Origin: a virus
Length of the DNA: 64,000 nt
IMG/VR virus record: IMGVR_UViG_3300027971_000044
Span: 17,487 to 81,486 of that record
Reading direction: 5' to 3' (one strand)
Shown here: piece after piece, positions 16,488-64,000 of the stretch
Position numbering within the stretch: position 1 is the first letter of the stretch
Layout of the letters: every line of letters begins with the position of its first letter
Translations under genes and position numbers: made by a program
The notes under the pieces: model-generated
The model's input: only the letters and a program-made list of their open reading frames with translations
Database searches by the model: none
Told to the model about the DNA's origin: nothing

Positions 16488-17822
16488 ATGAATATTGAAA
16501 AGTCTTTATGGACTAGCCATGGCAATGACATTAACTTGTCTGTTCCTTTCACTAAAGTTAACCGTGAAAATAGAACTGTCTCTGGTTTTGCAACACTCGA
16601 CAATGTAGACCAAACTGGTGACGTTGTAACTTCTGAAGCAAGCGTAAAGGCATTTGAAAGCTTTCGTGGGAACATCCGTGAAATGCATGGATCTCTTGCA
16701 GTTGGAAAGATGGTTTCTTTTAAGCCAGAAACTTTCTATGATCCAACAACCAAAGAGTTTTATAACGGAGTTTATGTAACAGCATACATTTCAAAAGGCG
16801 CACAAGATAGCTGGGAGAAAGTTCTAGATGGAACTCTTTCAGGATTCTCAATCGGCGGGAAGATTAAAGAGTCAGATAACGAAGTTAATAAAGCTACAGG
16901 TAAAACTGTAAGATTTATTAAAGACTACGAATTGATGGAGCTATCAATTGTAGATTCTCCAGCAAATGAGCTATGTAACATTCTTTCTATTCAGAAAGTA
17001 AATGGACAATACATTGCAAAGGGTATAGCAGTAGATGTTGTAACCGAAAATATTTTTTACTGTGAAGACAGTAATTCTGTTTTTATCTCAACAGATAAGA
17101 CATATGACTCACCAGTATCTGGTAAGCCAGCACAACTAATTGGTTGGGTTGAGAGTTCAGATGTTAATAAAGCAAAAGAGATTGATAAGATTCTTGATGC
17201 ATATAAGCATTCAAGATTTACGTTGCCTGATACACAAAAAATTGCAAAACAGGCAAACGCAGAAGGAGGTAATGAAATGTCAGAAAACACAGAAAACGTA
17301 GTTACTGAAGATGTTGCAGTCGATGCAGCAGTTGAAGTAGCCGTTGAAGAGACAGCAGTTGTTGCAGAAGATGCAGCTCCAGCTGAGGCTCCTGCAGAAG
17401 CAGTAGCAGAAGACGTTCCTGCCGAGACTCTGGAAAAAGCAGCCGAAGTATCAGAAGATAAGGTTGATGAACCTGATTTTGCAAAGATGTTAGGCGATCT
17501 AAAAGGCTTTTTCTCAGAAACTCTAAATAAGGCATCTGAAGCAAATGCAGCACAAGTTACAACAATCCAAGAGACTGTTGAAGCTTTCAGCAAGAGCGTA
17601 GATGCTAGAATTTCAGAGTTGGCAGAACAACACACAGTACTTTCAAGTGCTGTAAATGATATCAAGAGCACGATTGATGGTGTACAAAAGCGTGTCGACG
17701 CAGTAGAATCAGAGACTGCAATTAAGAAGTCTTCAGATCTTGGCCGATCAGAAGAAGTAACAATCAAAAAATCCAAATGGAACGGTTCTTTCCTCGGTTC
17801 CGTGAACGAAATATTTAACTAA
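16488..17822 (+). CDS. prohead protease fused to scaffold domain
   Basis: VSGFA..DNVDQTGD, REMH, GFSIGG and ELSIVDSPAN (HK97-type protease), followed by an acidic Ala/Glu-rich coiled-coil C-terminus. Confidence 0.88.
   Translation: MNIEKSLWTSHGNDINLSVPFTKVNRENRTVSGFATLDNVDQTGDVVTSEASVKAFESFRGNIREMHGSLAVGKMVSFKPETFYDPTTKEFYNGVYVTAYISKGAQDSWEKVLDGTLSGFSIGGKIKESDNEVNKATGKTVRFIKDYELMELSIVDSPANELCNILSIQKVNGQYIAKGIAVDVVTENIFYCEDSNSVFISTDKTYDSPVSGKPAQLIGWVESSDVNKAKEIDKILDAYKHSRFTLPDTQKIAKQANAEGGNEMSENTENVVTEDVAVDAAVEVAVEETAVVAEDAAPAEAPAEAVAEDVPAETLEKAAEVSEDKVDEPDFAKMLGDLKGFFSETLNKASEANAAQVTTIQETVEAFSKSVDARISELAEQHTVLSSAVNDIKSTIDGVQKRVDAVESETAIKKSSDLGRSEEVTIKKSKWNGSFLGSVNEIFN
17277..17822 (+). CDS. 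nested in-frame scaffolding protein
   Basis: AGAAGGAGGT SD at 17261-17270, 6 nt before in-frame ATG 17277 (MSENTENV). Confidence 0.7.
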   Translation: MSENTENVVTEDVAVDAAVEVAVEETAVVAEDAAPAEAPAEAVAEDVPAETLEKAAEVSEDKVDEPDFAKMLGDLKGFFSETLNKASEANAAQVTTIQETVEAFSKSVDARISELAEQHTVLSSAVNDIKSTIDGVQKRVDAVESETAIKKSSDLGRSEEVTIKKSKWNGSFLGSVNEIFN

Positions 17823-22935: not shown

Positions 22936-22971
22936 AATGAAAACCCCCAGGAAACTGGGGGTTTCTCATTT
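22936..22971 (+). terminator. intrinsic terminator
   Basis: AAACCCCCAG-GAAA-CTGGGGGTTT hairpin, then CTCATTT. Confidence 0.85.
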
Positions 22972-58637: not shown

Positions 58638-58966
58638 AATTAAGACCAGTATTTGAGGATGTTACTCAGTTTAATTGCAGTGATCTATATTTAAAATCTG
58701 TAGGAGCGCCAGCAGGAAATAAAATATGGTCAACGTGCCATGAAATTGCACACATGTTAATTGAAAAGAATATATCATACGGCAATTCAGCTTTGGATCC
58801 TGCCAGAATATTTTCAACAGCGGATTCAACAGAACAATTAAAAGTTCGTATTGATGATAAATTAAATAGAGTTAAGAATAATCAAGGCTATGCTGGGGAC
58901 AATGATATTGATGATTTGATTGGCTATTTAGTATTATATAAGATTGCAAAGGCTAAATCTGATTGA
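58634..58966 (+). CDS. DUF1599/Nmad1-like (nucleotide modification associated) protein
   Basis: KNISYGNS...VRIDDKLNR...DDLIGY. Confidence 0.65.
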   Translation: MKLRPVFEDVTQFNCSDLYLKSVGAPAGNKIWSTCHEIAHMLIEKNISYGNSALDPARIFSTADSTEQLKVRIDDKLNRVKNNQGYAGDNDIDDLIGYLVLYKIAKAKSD

Positions 58967-58991
58967 CATTTTAGTCGACTAAAAGTATAAT
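58963..58991 (+). promoter_or_regulatory. consensus promoter with 16-bp palindrome in spacer (leaderless)
   Basis: TTGACA-N17-TATAAT; TTTTAGTCGACTAAAA at 58969-58984; ATG 6 nt after the -10. Confidence 0.85.
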
Positions 58992-58997
58992 ATAGTA

Positions 58998-59534
58998 ATG
59001 AGCGAAATAGAATTATCAGAGCATTTTGATAGAATGAACAAGGTGGTTGAAGAACTTCTTAAAGGAAGTACGCCTACCCAGATTGCCACTACTACTGGAA
59101 TCCAGCGCAAAGAAGTCCTTGAGCTAATTGACGACTGGAAAGATGTAGTACATAATGATAGCAATATCAGAGATCGTGCCCGAGAGGCCATCTCAGGGGC
59201 CGATCAGCACTATGCCATGCTTATCAAAGAGGCGTGGAAAACAGTAGAAGATGCAGATCAATCTGGCCAATTAGGAATAAAGTCTGGCGCATTAAAGCTT
59301 ATTGCGGATATAGAGACCAAAAGAATTGCAATGCTTCAATCTATTGGCGTACTTGAAAACAATGAGATTGCATCACAAATTGCAGAGACAGAACGTAAAC
59401 AAGACATCCTTGTTAGAATTTTAAAAGAGACTACATCAATATGCCCTAAGTGTAAGATGGAAGTAGCAAAAAGGTTATCTCAAATAACTGGAGTAATTGA
59501 ATCCGTTCAAGTAGAGGAAGCCGATGTCGTTTGA
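58998..59534 (+). CDS. HTH protein, candidate terminase small subunit
   Basis: N-terminal HTH (TPTQIATTTGIQRKEV); overlaps TerL. Confidence 0.6.
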   Translation: MSEIELSEHFDRMNKVVEELLKGSTPTQIATTTGIQRKEVLELIDDWKDVVHNDSNIRDRAREAISGADQHYAMLIKEAWKTVEDADQSGQLGIKSGALKLIADIETKRIAMLQSIGVLENNEIASQIAETERKQDILVRILKETTSICPKCKMEVAKRLSQITGVIESVQVEEADVV

Positions 59535-61582: not shown

Positions 61583-61656
61583 GCAACAGTAGCTTAGTTG
61601 GTCAAAGCCCCGAACTCATAATTCGGTAATCGTAGGTTCAAGTCCTACCTGTTGTA
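61583..61656 (+). tRNA. tRNA with CAT anticodon (elongator Met or Ile2)
   Basis: Acceptor GCAACAG/CTGTTGT; anticodon arm CCGAA-CTCATAA-TTCGG; T arm GTAGG-TTCAAGT-CCTAC; no encoded CCA; TTGACA-N18-TACAAT upstream. Confidence 0.85.
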
Positions 61657-61668
61657 CTAGGAGAGCAT

Positions 61669-61980
61669 ATGGATGATGATGAGAAATTATCAATGTACTT
61701 AGAAATGGGTGCAGTGGAGCTAGCGGGAATGGATGAGCATGGAGAATTTATCTTCCAGATTACAGAAAAAGCAAAAGATATTGCTCCAGAGTTATGGCAG
61801 GCTCATCAAGAGCATGTTGATAGATCATTAGTTCAATTATATGAGGCGGGCTTAATAAATGTTACTTATAATGATAACCTTGAAGCAACAATAGAAATGT
61901 CAGAAGAAGGACATGAAATGGCCAAAGATTTGGGCTTAGTAGAGATTAATATGCATGAGGAAGATATTCCAAACGATTAA
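61669..61980 (+). CDS. acidic hypothetical protein
   Basis: AGGAG RBS; 103 aa. Confidence 0.7.
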   Translation: MDDDEKLSMYLEMGAVELAGMDEHGEFIFQITEKAKDIAPELWQAHQEHVDRSLVQLYEAGLINVTYNDNLEATIEMSEEGHEMAKDLGLVEINMHEEDIPND

Positions 61981-61986
61981 TTTAAT

Positions 61987-62059
61987 GCCTTCGTAGCTCA
62001 GAGGATAGAGCAGGACTCTTCTAAGGTCTTGGTCGCAGGTTCGACTCCTGCCGACGGCG
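61987..62059 (+). tRNA. tRNA-Arg(TCT)
   Basis: GCTC/GAGC D stem, GGACT-CTTCTAA-GGTCT, GCAGG-TTCGACT-CCTGC; one T-C mismatch in the acceptor. Confidence 0.88.
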
Positions 62060-62063
62060 CAAC

Positions 62064-62134
62064 GCGGATGTTGCATATTGGTAGTGCCTCTGCCTTCCAA
62101 GCAGAAGGGGTCAGTTCGATTCTGATCATCCGCT
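62064..62134 (+). tRNA. tRNA-Gly(TCC)
   Basis: GCGGATG/CATCCGC acceptor, TCTGC-CTTCCAA-GCAGA, U73 discriminator. Confidence 0.9.
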
Positions 62135-62189
62135 CAAATAAAGAAATGCTATACTTATAGTATAGTAAACTACAATAAGGAGAAATAAA

Positions 62190-63224: not shown

Positions 63225-63710
63225 ATGGTAACAACAACACTGGATTTTTTTAATGATCCATTTTTTATTGGTTTTGATCGCCAAATTAAAGATCTACAAA
63301 ATATAAGCAGAAATACTTCAAACTATCCGCCTCATAATATATCTAAGGTCAAAGGACCAGATGAGATGTATGTAATTGAGCTGGCCTTGGCTGGATTTAA
63401 TAAAGAGGATATTGAAGTAGAACAAGATAAGAATGTACTAACAATTAAAGGTGCCTCTAACGAAGACCCAAATAAAGAATATCTTTATAAGGGAATTGGA
63501 GCACGTTCATTTGTTAAAACATTTTCTCTTGCAGAATATGTAAAGGTTAATTCCGTGATTATTTCAAACGGAATCTTGATGGTAGGACTAACTAAGTTCA
63601 TTCCAGAAAGTGAAAGACCAGTTAAGTTCGATATTCATGACTTTGATTCAGCAGAAGGATTTGAAGATCTTAGAGATACTGAAGTAAAGACAAAAAGAAC
63701 AAAGAAATAG
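63225..63710 (+). CDS. hsp20: small heat shock protein (Hsp20/IbpA-like)
   Basis: NYPPHNI, IELALAGF, YLYKGIGARSF..TFSL and NGIL. Confidence 0.92.
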   Translation: MVTTTLDFFNDPFFIGFDRQIKDLQNISRNTSNYPPHNISKVKGPDEMYVIELALAGFNKEDIEVEQDKNVLTIKGASNEDPNKEYLYKGIGARSFVKTFSLAEYVKVNSVIISNGILMVGLTKFIPESERPVKFDIHDFDSAEGFEDLRDTEVKTKRTKK

Positions 63711-63720
63711 TATAATAGAA

Positions 63721-63801
63721 ATCTGCACCCCTTCATCGGGAAGTCGCAGATAGCGGGCCGTTACCCGCAGGATGGACCTGAGTAAGTCCTCAAACTGCTC
63801 A
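63721..63801 (+). ncRNA. candidate structured small RNA (two hairpins plus H-type pseudoknot)
   Basis: GC-rich intergenic island between two TATAAT boxes, with four complementary pairings read by eye. Confidence 0.5.
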
Positions 63802-63821
63802 CTATAATTAAAGGATAGGTA

Positions 63822-64000
63822 ATGCCAGTATACGAATACAAGTGCTCATATGATGATGCACATCCAACAATGTCAACTCATAGATCGATAACAGAAAGTG
63901 ATCCAGGCTATAGTTGTGTTGAATGTGATTCACAAATGACAAGACACTTTACACCATTTGGTATACAATTTAAAGGTAACGGATTTTATAAAACAGACAA
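63822..64000 (+). CDS. FmdB-like Zn-ribbon protein (3' truncated; not in ORF track)
   Basis: MPVYEYKC...CVEC...GIQFKGNGFYKTD. Confidence 0.8.
   Translation, partial: MPVYEYKCSYDDAHPTMSTHRSITESDPGYSCVECDSQMTRHFTPFGIQFKGNGFYKTD

Follow-up and report, generated by a model that had tools for sequence, protein, structure and literature searches.

The stretch of viral DNA analysed here (the window, 64,000 nucleotides (nt), positions 17,487 to 81,486 of IMG/VR record IMGVR_UViG_3300027971_000044, a virus contig of 81.5 kb) carries a non-coding element at 63711-63801, between a gene for a small heat-shock protein (Hsp20) and a zinc-ribbon (Zn-ribbon, FmdB-like) gene. It consists of a promoter-like -10 box, two hairpins (P1 and P2), and a compact H-type pseudoknot, hereafter the knot, after which the RNA runs on to a ribosome-binding site; on sequence and covariation, this anatomy is well supported. 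Judged by its sequence relatives, the RNA belongs to a large family, found in freshwater viral contigs, that is absent from Rfam. Its ~28-nt knot is not specific to the Hsp20-linked RNA, and we found it in at least 119-120 viral stretches in each of three IMG/VR scans. We tentatively read the element, with some doubt, as a module of the boundary between hsp20 and the next gene: a promoter-started RNA in which the knot would be a ligand-free roadblock that fixes or protects RNA ends.

From the window sequence alone the case for a structured RNA is weak. The single-sequence fold has a z-score of -2.27, with 4 of 200 shuffles equally good, and a loose scan for compact H-type pseudoknot geometry gives 42 matches on both strands of the 81.5-kb contig. 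The support comes from relatives. Across 71 window-like sequences (type A, see below), 94.3% of cells pair, against 35-48% in a control with slid partners, and double-sided changes occur at 11 pairs, against 5.7+/-1.1 in shuffles (none of 500 reached 11). Homologs with compensatory changes, by which the initial annotation proposed to judge its candidate small RNA, are thus present in viral metagenomes. The outer helix of P1 is 94.1% paired with two covarying pairs, and the inner helix CCCC/GGGA is 98.6% paired, also with two; it takes the place of the CTTC/GAAG pairing that had first been drawn there. In P2, double changes are seen at four of the six pairs, one of which, for example, is G-C in 31 sequences, U-A in 27, and A-U in 6. 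RNAalifold predicts P1, P2, and the loop-tail helix unaided. In one relative (L013), P1 contains a G-U pair (GTCTGC/GCAGAT on the + strand) that the opposite strand would turn into an A-C mismatch, and we conclude that the RNA strand is the + strand.

The pseudoknot helix is almost invariant in type A, where the search pattern partly fixes it. We therefore examined it in a set of 29 sequences, made of 27 Hsp20 neighbours, which had also passed a loose knot filter, and two named phages. In this set the pseudoknot stem 1 (P3) is 100% paired, with covariation at three of its four pairs, and the C-G pair that closes the loop is kept in 29/29; the first three pairs vary freely in general knot samples. 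Stem 2, between loop and tail, has 95.4% of its cells paired. Its central pair is A-U in 25 sequences and G-C in 4; the pair beside it is split between C-G (15) and U-G (14). When both central letters were left free in a scan, the stem-validated matches listed comprised 93 A-U (a count inflated by pooling with another knot scan), 7 G-C, and one each of G-U, G-A, and C-C; among these matches, a G in the loop comes with a C partner in 7 of 9 cases. Only 39 of the 71 type A sequences retain the outermost U-A pair of stem 2, which therefore has 5 base pairs (bp) in many copies and 6 in the window. By this covariation, all helices are maintained by compensatory change and the pseudoknot, already part of the initial annotation, is real.

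The same annotation had placed here two TATAAT boxes, P1, P2, P3, the loop pairing, its connectors, and the TCAAAC loop, and a direct reading of the sequence finds each of them in place (Table 1). The description as a GC-rich non-coding island also holds, with 57% G+C, whereas the window as a whole has 39% and the hsp20 open reading frame (ORF) 33%. The element is neither a tRNA nor a terminator: ARAGORN and the Rfam tRNA model give only three tRNAs in the window, all at 61583-62135, and a terminator scan gives no terminator-like site at the element. Directly after the TGCTC of stem 2 come the bases ACTATAAT, with no U-tract, unlike in an intrinsic terminator. Rfam 15 has nothing overlapping 63711-63808, either at gathering scores over the whole window or at E<=10 around the element, which agrees with the claim of novelty. 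Both the RNA element and the knot occur once in the 81.5-kb contig, and all large ORFs of the window lie on the + strand.

Table 1. Features of the element and its neighbours (window coordinates)
Feature	Position	Strand	Remark
hsp20 (small heat-shock protein gene)	63225..63710	+	Pfam PF00011, E 5.9e-15, passes the curated cut-off
hsp20 stop codon TAG	63708-10	+	read directly; constant upstream neighbour of the RNA family
-35-like hexamer AAGACA	63687..63692	+	within the hsp20 coding end; 18 nt 5' of the -10 box; 10/12 matches in a promoter scan
-10 box TATAAT	63711..63716	+	4 nt 5' of P1, 6 nt 5' of CTGCA
P1	63721..63751	+	outer and inner helix, bulged A63727, 3' internal loop
P1 outer helix	ATCTGC 63721-26 / GCAGAT 63746-51	+	
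P1 inner helix	CCCC 63728-31 / GGGA 63738-41	+	loop TTCATC; GGGG in most relatives
P1 internal loop AGTC	63742-45	+	3' side
P2	63753..63768	+	GCGGG 63753-57 / CCCGC 63764-68, loop CCGTTA
Linker GGAT	63770..63773	+	5' of the knot; nearly invariant in the 71 type A sequences
P3 (pseudoknot stem 1)	GGAC 63774-77 / GTCC 63786-89	+	closes loop C-TGAGTA-A
Pseudoknot stem 2	TGAGTA 63779-84 with TGCTCA 63796-801	+	loop-to-tail helix
Pseudoknot connectors	C63778, A63785	+	1 nt each
Third pseudoknot loop TCAAAC	63790-95	+	AAAC conserved
Spacer	63802..63821	+	AU-rich, G-poor; holds second TATAAT 63803-08 and Shine-Dalgarno AAAGGA 63810-15
Zn-ribbon (FmdB-like) ORF	63822..64000	+	ATG at 63822, 20 nt 3' of the knot end (read directly); 3' part beyond the contig end; full 62-aa relative: PF09723, E 4.7e-5, under the Pfam cut-off

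To delimit the family, we collected 56 viral loci via the neighbouring Hsp20 protein. BLAST finds the element just 3' of hsp20 in 29 of them, at 84-99% identity, and loci without a BLAST match include diverged, shorter versions (L029-L048). In three others (L051, L056, and L057), the ~260 nt read 3' of hsp20 contain no RNA of this kind, and four loci (L052-L055) are truncated. A pattern scan of IMG/VR then matched at least 119 stretches, from which six unrelated matches were dropped by eye; the matches listed hold 143 instances, 96 of them distinct (70 of type A and 26 of a second type, B). The totals of this and the other scans are lower bounds and their samples arbitrary, and letters fixed by the patterns are invariant by construction. 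In type B, P2 is replaced or accompanied by a hairpin of conserved sequence together with an A-rich linker. This hairpin has a GTCG/CGAC stem and a G-rich, Shine-Dalgarno-like loop, as at L109:7125-7240(-), L385, and L410; a pairing of its loop with the linker was rejected, as no compensatory change was seen. A small ORF from the ATG in GGATGG was also discarded, being kept in neither type B nor type D. The window fits the definition of the family, with its -10 box after the hsp20 stop, 5' hairpins, and knot, and matches the type A consensus. Among the listed matches of a scan of bacterial genomes, which covered at least 120 stretches, the -10 box and tail are found together only in L253, a contig binned to a metagenome-assembled genome of Bacteroidia; the remaining ones look like chance.

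The 5' part of the RNA is variable. P2 is replaced by another hairpin or absent in some relatives, and in several (for example L100, L088, L094, L385, and L410) a T-run comes directly after the knot and another promoter after that, forming a discrete unit. The variation is clearest in a series of 24 distinct relatives, which come from knot-only patterns at loci also encoding Hsp20, so that the knot is present by construction, and in which the gap from the hsp20 stop to the knot ranges from 5 to 101 nt. Gaps of 5-21 nt hold nothing recognisable. At 22 nt there is a -10 box only (L522, and L523, where the Zn-ribbon gene comes next), at 33-46 nt a -10 box and one hairpin, at 58-68 nt two hairpins, and at 88-101 nt a long domain or three hairpins. 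With the -10 box alone, as in L522 and L523, the transcript would start at the knot. As far as these sequences tell, the knot and the Hsp20 neighbour are constant, while P1 and P2 are accessory, interchangeable, and dispensable in relatives. In one further locus (L049, 2795-2945), the knot lies upstream of hsp20 and ends a longer RNA, which has a -10 box and whose 5' domain of ~95 nt is a different one; the knot is followed by a fresh TGCTATAAT promoter.

The upstream TATAAT is nearly invariant: at every one of its six positions the letter is the same in 90-92 of 93 distinct contexts, and the spacing of 6 nt to CTGCA is fixed; the rare variants TATTAT, TACAAT, and TAACAT retain TAnnnT. The second TATAAT (63803), which the initial annotation had treated as the other border of the element, is found in at least 16 of 103 distinct relatives. 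Hence, only the upstream box belongs to the conserved element and we excluded the downstream one. No -35 motif is conserved across the family, since this region encodes the lysine-rich end of Hsp20. Diverged relatives with a longer spacer have TAGACA-17-TATACT or TATAAT.

The upstream neighbour is equally stable, as the upstream ORF belongs to the Hsp20 cluster in 130 of 141 family instances among the matches listed, and in around 100 of 112 instances found by the RNA pattern alone (around 29 Hsp20-seeded ones removed). Downstream ORFs, assigned for 116 of the 143 instances, are more varied: 49 are SNase-like, 42 Zn-ribbon, and 25 from other clusters. In five loci (L021-L025) the RNA is 96-98% identical to that of the window and Hsp20 only about 42% identical at the protein level, which places a mosaic breakpoint at the junction of hsp20 and the RNA. 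The start of the Zn-ribbon gene also lies within the 96-98% identical part of these loci.

The knot itself has a much wider distribution. BLAST of 1 kb against named phages matched only the SNase and Hsp20 genes, and short RNA queries gave matches at E~0.3 only, which on inspection were exact copies of the knot consensus. In Lactobacillus phage KC5a the knot lies between head-protein and minor-capsid genes and is followed by TTTTT, and in Arthrobacter phage Molivia 7 nt separate it from the ssb stop upstream and 1 nt from a tRNA downstream. Contigs with the knot stem from many sample sets, and in some of them a few kb contain as many as four copies. For a general view we used an unforced sample of 142 instances among the matches listed, 141 of them distinct. 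In this sample, 113 of 141 copies lie 3' of an ORF (50 codons or longer), at a median distance of 9 nt from its stop (quartiles 6-19), and 67 lie 5' of an ORF start, at a median of 27 nt (quartiles 20.5-33). Sixteen lie 4-13 nt 5' of a tRNA, and 12 have a T-rich tail. With stricter settings (ORFs of at least 80 codons, flanks of at least 400 nt, 116 copies), 108 copies are intergenic; the ORFs on either side are co-directional in 92 of these, and in 4 a neighbour is convergent. Of the 108, 58 have a stop on the same strand in the 30 nt upstream and 30 a start on the same strand in the 45 nt downstream, hence the association of the knot is closer with gene ends than with starts. Few copies in the general sample (3 of 135) have a -10 box in the 30 nt 5' of the knot, which suggests that the promoter is a speciality of the Hsp20-linked subfamily.

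The bases that follow the knot are also biased. The first is A in 104 of 140 copies, the next two are C in 68 and 64, and the eight positions after the knot are poor in G (2-17 of 140 each); ACC follows in 25 of 142 copies and ACCA in 13. A boxA-like antitermination leader was considered, as the bases after the knot resemble the boxA consensus in some relatives, and rejected, because the general sample has A followed by C/U-rich bases, which differs from that consensus. A scan that required TTTT right after the knot matched at least 119 stretches. Some Lactobacillus-phage-like loci, including L302, L308, L313, and L355, have knot and T-run followed by a conserved TATGC box, a second covarying hairpin, and the gene, and there the knot may be part of a larger leader. 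In six loci (L421, L433, L451, L464, L477, and L490), three or four knots occur within a few kb, often before tRNA-Asp. Across 28 other knot-bearing loci, Rfam matches are limited to tRNAs and one tmRNA; the latter (L417, 2105-2185, 61.4 bits) lies between tRNA genes in a knot-bearing viral contig. At L423 (-), L420, and L350, the sequence a few bases 3' of the knot looks by eye like a hammerhead core (CUGAUGA ... GAAA), but these cores were unconfirmed by Rfam; L423 has no match to a hammerhead model even at E<=0.1.

Other signals in the window are of ordinary type. A perfect TTGACA-17-TATAAT promoter lies at 58964-59000, with its -10 ending 5 nt 5' of the ATG at 58998, which on sequence grounds suggests a leaderless or nearly leaderless message for that ORF. 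A canonical intrinsic terminator, with a C/G-rich hairpin and TTT directly after an ORF, lies at 22940-22970, and a -10-like box follows at ~22993. The host thus seems to use sigma-70-type signals, and the phage normal terminators where these are wanted. Between the terminase and CHAP-domain genes are the tRNA genes Met-CAT (61583-61657), Arg-TCT (61987-62060), and Gly-TCC (62064-62135). The terminase is 62-65% identical to those of Streptomyces phages, which hints at an actinobacterial host.

Parts of the stretch are found in 24 sequencing runs, of which 21, from lake, river, and freshwater samples, are recorded as RNA; all consist of assembled contigs, and the absence of a contig over a given part is no evidence. 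In four lake metatranscriptome runs, a contig covering 63205-63751 bridges hsp20 into the RNA, and contigs 63738-63869, 63707-63989, and 63766-64000 bridge the RNA into the Zn-ribbon gene. These are compatible with read-through transcripts, and could also come from DNA in the libraries. Two contigs from two runs stop at 63697 within hsp20, which we take for assembly breaks at the mosaic junction.

How might such an element work? A sigma-70-type -10 promoter right after the hsp20 stop would start an RNA at ~63722, whose first ~80 nt are predicted to fold into the two hairpins and the compact H-type pseudoknot. With no terminator in between, the transcript would then extend to the Zn-ribbon gene, 20 nt on, and its ribosome-binding site. 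The knot, as one copy of a widespread and uncatalogued gene-end knot of phages, would be the functional core, probably a mechanical roadblock for processive enzymes in multi-gene phage transcripts. P1 would form the 5'-terminal stem-loop, and P1 and P2, as accessory parts, would probably add stability to the 5' end. Two directions of blocking are conceivable. The knot may stop an enzyme that moves 5' to 3' (RNase J, or RNase E scanning from the 5' end) and thereby shield the Zn-ribbon message, which is favoured by the promoter-plus-knot leaders and by the precedent of coremin, an exoribonuclease-resistant RNA (xrRNA) discussed below. Alternatively, it may stop 3'-to-5' exonucleases, cap the hsp20 message, and leave a stable RNA of ~80 nt, which is favoured by the bias towards gene ends and the proximity to tRNAs. 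For the window, one would expect either an RNA of ~80 nt that is stable and structured at both ends, or a Zn-ribbon message whose 5' end has been cut back to a point just upstream of 63774.

The roadblock reading draws on the compact architecture, the position at cistron boundaries, the RNA ends that would be made nearby, and the analogy with coremin. Single-nucleotide connectors and an A-rich third loop are the design of knots that resist unwinding. As for the ends, RNase P would cut 4-13 nt 3' of the knot where a tRNA follows, transcription would stop after the knot where there is a T-run, and the knot would itself be the 5' end where a bare promoter precedes it. Several points weigh against a roadblock. 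The evidence from RNA libraries consists of assembled contigs, which may stem from DNA and show no starts, ends, or strand. The second hairpin (hp2) that coremin requires is not enriched after the knot: hairpins starting 0-4 nt after it are seen in 16 of 132 copies, compared with 17-23 of 132 at control positions, and none in the window. A stem 2 of 5-6 bp is weak as a 3' barrier, and frameshifting knots are reported not to stop Xrn1, which is a warning. A pure roadblock does not obviously explain why the letters of stem 2 and loop are conserved across phages of different phyla; this conservation points to a conserved partner. Likewise, the AGTC loop of P1, invariant in types A and B (partly fixed by the pattern), is a hint that P1 may make a specific contact, unlike a generic stem-loop.

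Some of these observations would also fit a self-contained gene for a trans-acting small RNA (sRNA) of ~80 nt, with its own promoter, a 3' end made or protected by the knot, and targets or protein partners in host or phage. The -10 box is conserved and positioned for a start at the foot of P1, the relatives with knot, T-run, and new promoter are discrete units, the unpaired letters of P1 are invariant in sequence, and type B has a sequence-conserved hairpin in the position of P2. An independently transcribed sRNA had indeed been proposed in the initial annotation, and its promoter and the units in relatives speak for that part of the proposal; the nuclease-resistant end suggested with it agrees with our leading reading of the knot, while the decoy for host defence proteins, which would be one form of such an RNA, is not supported. 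In the window, no T-run or terminator-like site precedes the Shine-Dalgarno sequence and the ATG 20 nt later. Moreover, the 5' hairpins are absent, swapped, or multiplied in relatives while the knot alone is constant, the knot is a generic gene-end module in unrelated phages, and no target or seed region was identified, so that we regard a dedicated sRNA gene as unlikely. The letters after the knot bring up another idea, a signal for processing or termination: either a knot that resembles a tRNA acceptor and would be a target of RNase P, RNase Z, or the CCA-adding enzyme, or else a pseudoknot terminator or attenuator. The A and C bias with its ACC trinucleotides, the copies shortly before tRNAs, the many matches of the scan requiring TTTT, and the TTTTT of KC5a agree with it. 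Yet CCA is not conserved, since ACCA follows the knot in so few copies and the window has ACTA after TGCTC, and ARAGORN and Rfam find nothing tRNA-like in the element, so that a tRNA-like structure was rejected. An intrinsic terminator was rejected for the window as well, where no site combines a hairpin with a U-tract. T-rich tails are infrequent in the unforced sample, and knots lie mostly between co-directional genes and seldom next to a convergent one. A processing or termination signal is in our view quite improbable.

A cis-regulatory sensor in the 5' leader of the downstream gene, whether a riboswitch, a thermosensor linked to heat shock, or a protein operator as in T4 gene 32, receives the least weight from us. 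The knot does lie 10-15 nt 5' of the Shine-Dalgarno sequence, at a fairly fixed distance, and its loop letters are conserved. In some relatives with an SNase gene downstream, the 3' strand of the knot and the next bases pair with the Shine-Dalgarno sequence in a hairpin of -8 to -9 kcal/mol. Over 75 sequences, however, such pairing is no more probable than in shuffles (0.461 vs 0.493, a weak control in which five letters are shuffled), and in the window the Shine-Dalgarno sequence pairs with the 3' strand of the knot at a probability of 0.12. The downstream genes are unrelated, the knot also precedes tRNAs, and its position follows upstream stops more closely than downstream starts. The 1-nt connectors would leave little room for a ligand pocket, and no riboswitch family matches: we rejected preQ1-I and other pseudoknot riboswitches both because no Rfam model overlaps 63711-63808 at E<=10 and because an expression platform is missing, with varied downstream genes, no excess pairing of the Shine-Dalgarno sequence, and no terminator. 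The suggestion in the initial annotation of a ligand-sensing leader for the FmdB-like gene is set aside on the same grounds.

Whatever its function, this RNA family is abundant, well supported, and missing from Rfam. Programmed resistance to exoribonucleases is so far known from RNA viruses of eukaryotes. If the knot blocks bacterial RNases, this would account for the way in which phages adjust the stability of individual cistrons in long operons, provide synthetic biology with a portable stabiliser of 28 nt for use in many bacteria, and imply either convergence or deep sharing between RNA structures of phages and plant viruses. The natural series of knot, promoter plus knot, and promoter plus hairpins plus knot makes the parts directly testable.

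Our literature search returned no description of the Hsp20-linked RNA, nor of a comparable widely shared phage element. The PeSL elements of T4-type phages are promoter-plus-stem-loop cassettes that flank variable genes in many copies per genome. They resemble the element of the window in having a conserved promoter and an adjacent RNA structure at a mosaic boundary; a repeated cassette of this type was rejected because the element is single-copy in its contig. The data source is shared with a survey of IMG/VR intergenic regions that describes 8,495 anonymous candidate structured RNAs with 'DNAVirus_X' models (PMC10690425), likewise covarying intergenic phage RNAs outside Rfam. No motif linked to Hsp20 and no pseudoknot at gene ends is named in its main text ('heat shock' occurs 0 times and 'pseudoknot' 2 times), and its models could list the RNA anonymously. 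Given its abundance, the Hsp20-linked family may be among them.

In architecture, the knot is close to two groups of pseudoknots and to coremin. Frameshifters of the luteovirus type and the leader of gene 32 in T4-even phages contain compact H-type pseudoknots with a 1-nt first loop. As in the phage knot, stem 1 is short, a single nucleotide spans the deep groove of stem 2, and a loop rich in A runs along stem 1. The gene 32 knot also lies in a phage leader, with AU-rich sequence up to the ribosome-binding site. Contrary to frameshifters, the knot locus has neither a slippery site nor an overlapping frame, and contrary to gene 32 the downstream gene varies, does not encode a single-strand binding protein, and the sequence is unrelated. 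Pseudoknots of beet western yellows virus (BWYV) and potato leafroll virus (PLRV) are mentioned in PMC10321173, which also describes how the coremin xrRNA blocks Xrn1 and scanning ribosomes.

Coremin (xrRNA_C, with its Watson-Crick variant xrRNA_WCC), from plant and other RNA viruses, is, by sequence and architecture, the closest described object, although the knot is not filed as a member. The enzyme it resists, Xrn1, is absent from bacteria. Still, bacterial RNase J1 is stopped in vitro by a flaviviral xrRNA (PMC5760640), hence the roadblock principle can work on a bacterial enzyme. The coremin hairpin has 3-4 bp and its loop must be closed by a C-G pair, with U-A tolerated (PMC6546385); P3, with 4 bp and its constant closing C-G, agrees with this. 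In both, the first connector is a single pyrimidine and the loop pairs with the 3' end of an A-rich spacer to give a compact H-type knot. In viruses, coremin sits in untranslated regions after ORFs. It needs no protein, and the same would hold for the phage knot. The differences lie in the letters and the lengths. The coremin loop is YGAD or YGNNAD, whereas that of the knot is C-UGAGYA-N, 8 nt or more, and only the leading pyrimidine and GA are common. Stem 2 of coremin has 3 bp, partly non-canonical, compared with 5-6 Watson-Crick pairs, and its spacer of around ten nt ends in CUAC, where the knot has a 6-9-nt loop ending in AAAC and then UGCUC(A): the layout is the same with other letters. 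Coremin also needs hp2 right after the spacer for resistance to Xrn1, and the knot lacks it. By analogy, the knot could be the phage counterpart of xrRNAs, a bolder proposal to which we lean with more reserve: a protein-independent mechanical roadblock of conserved sequence, used as punctuation by phages of several bacterial phyla, that would select the segments of polycistronic transcripts surviving RNase J, RNase E, or 3' exonucleases, with the Hsp20-linked RNA as an elaborated version that would also yield a stable small RNA.

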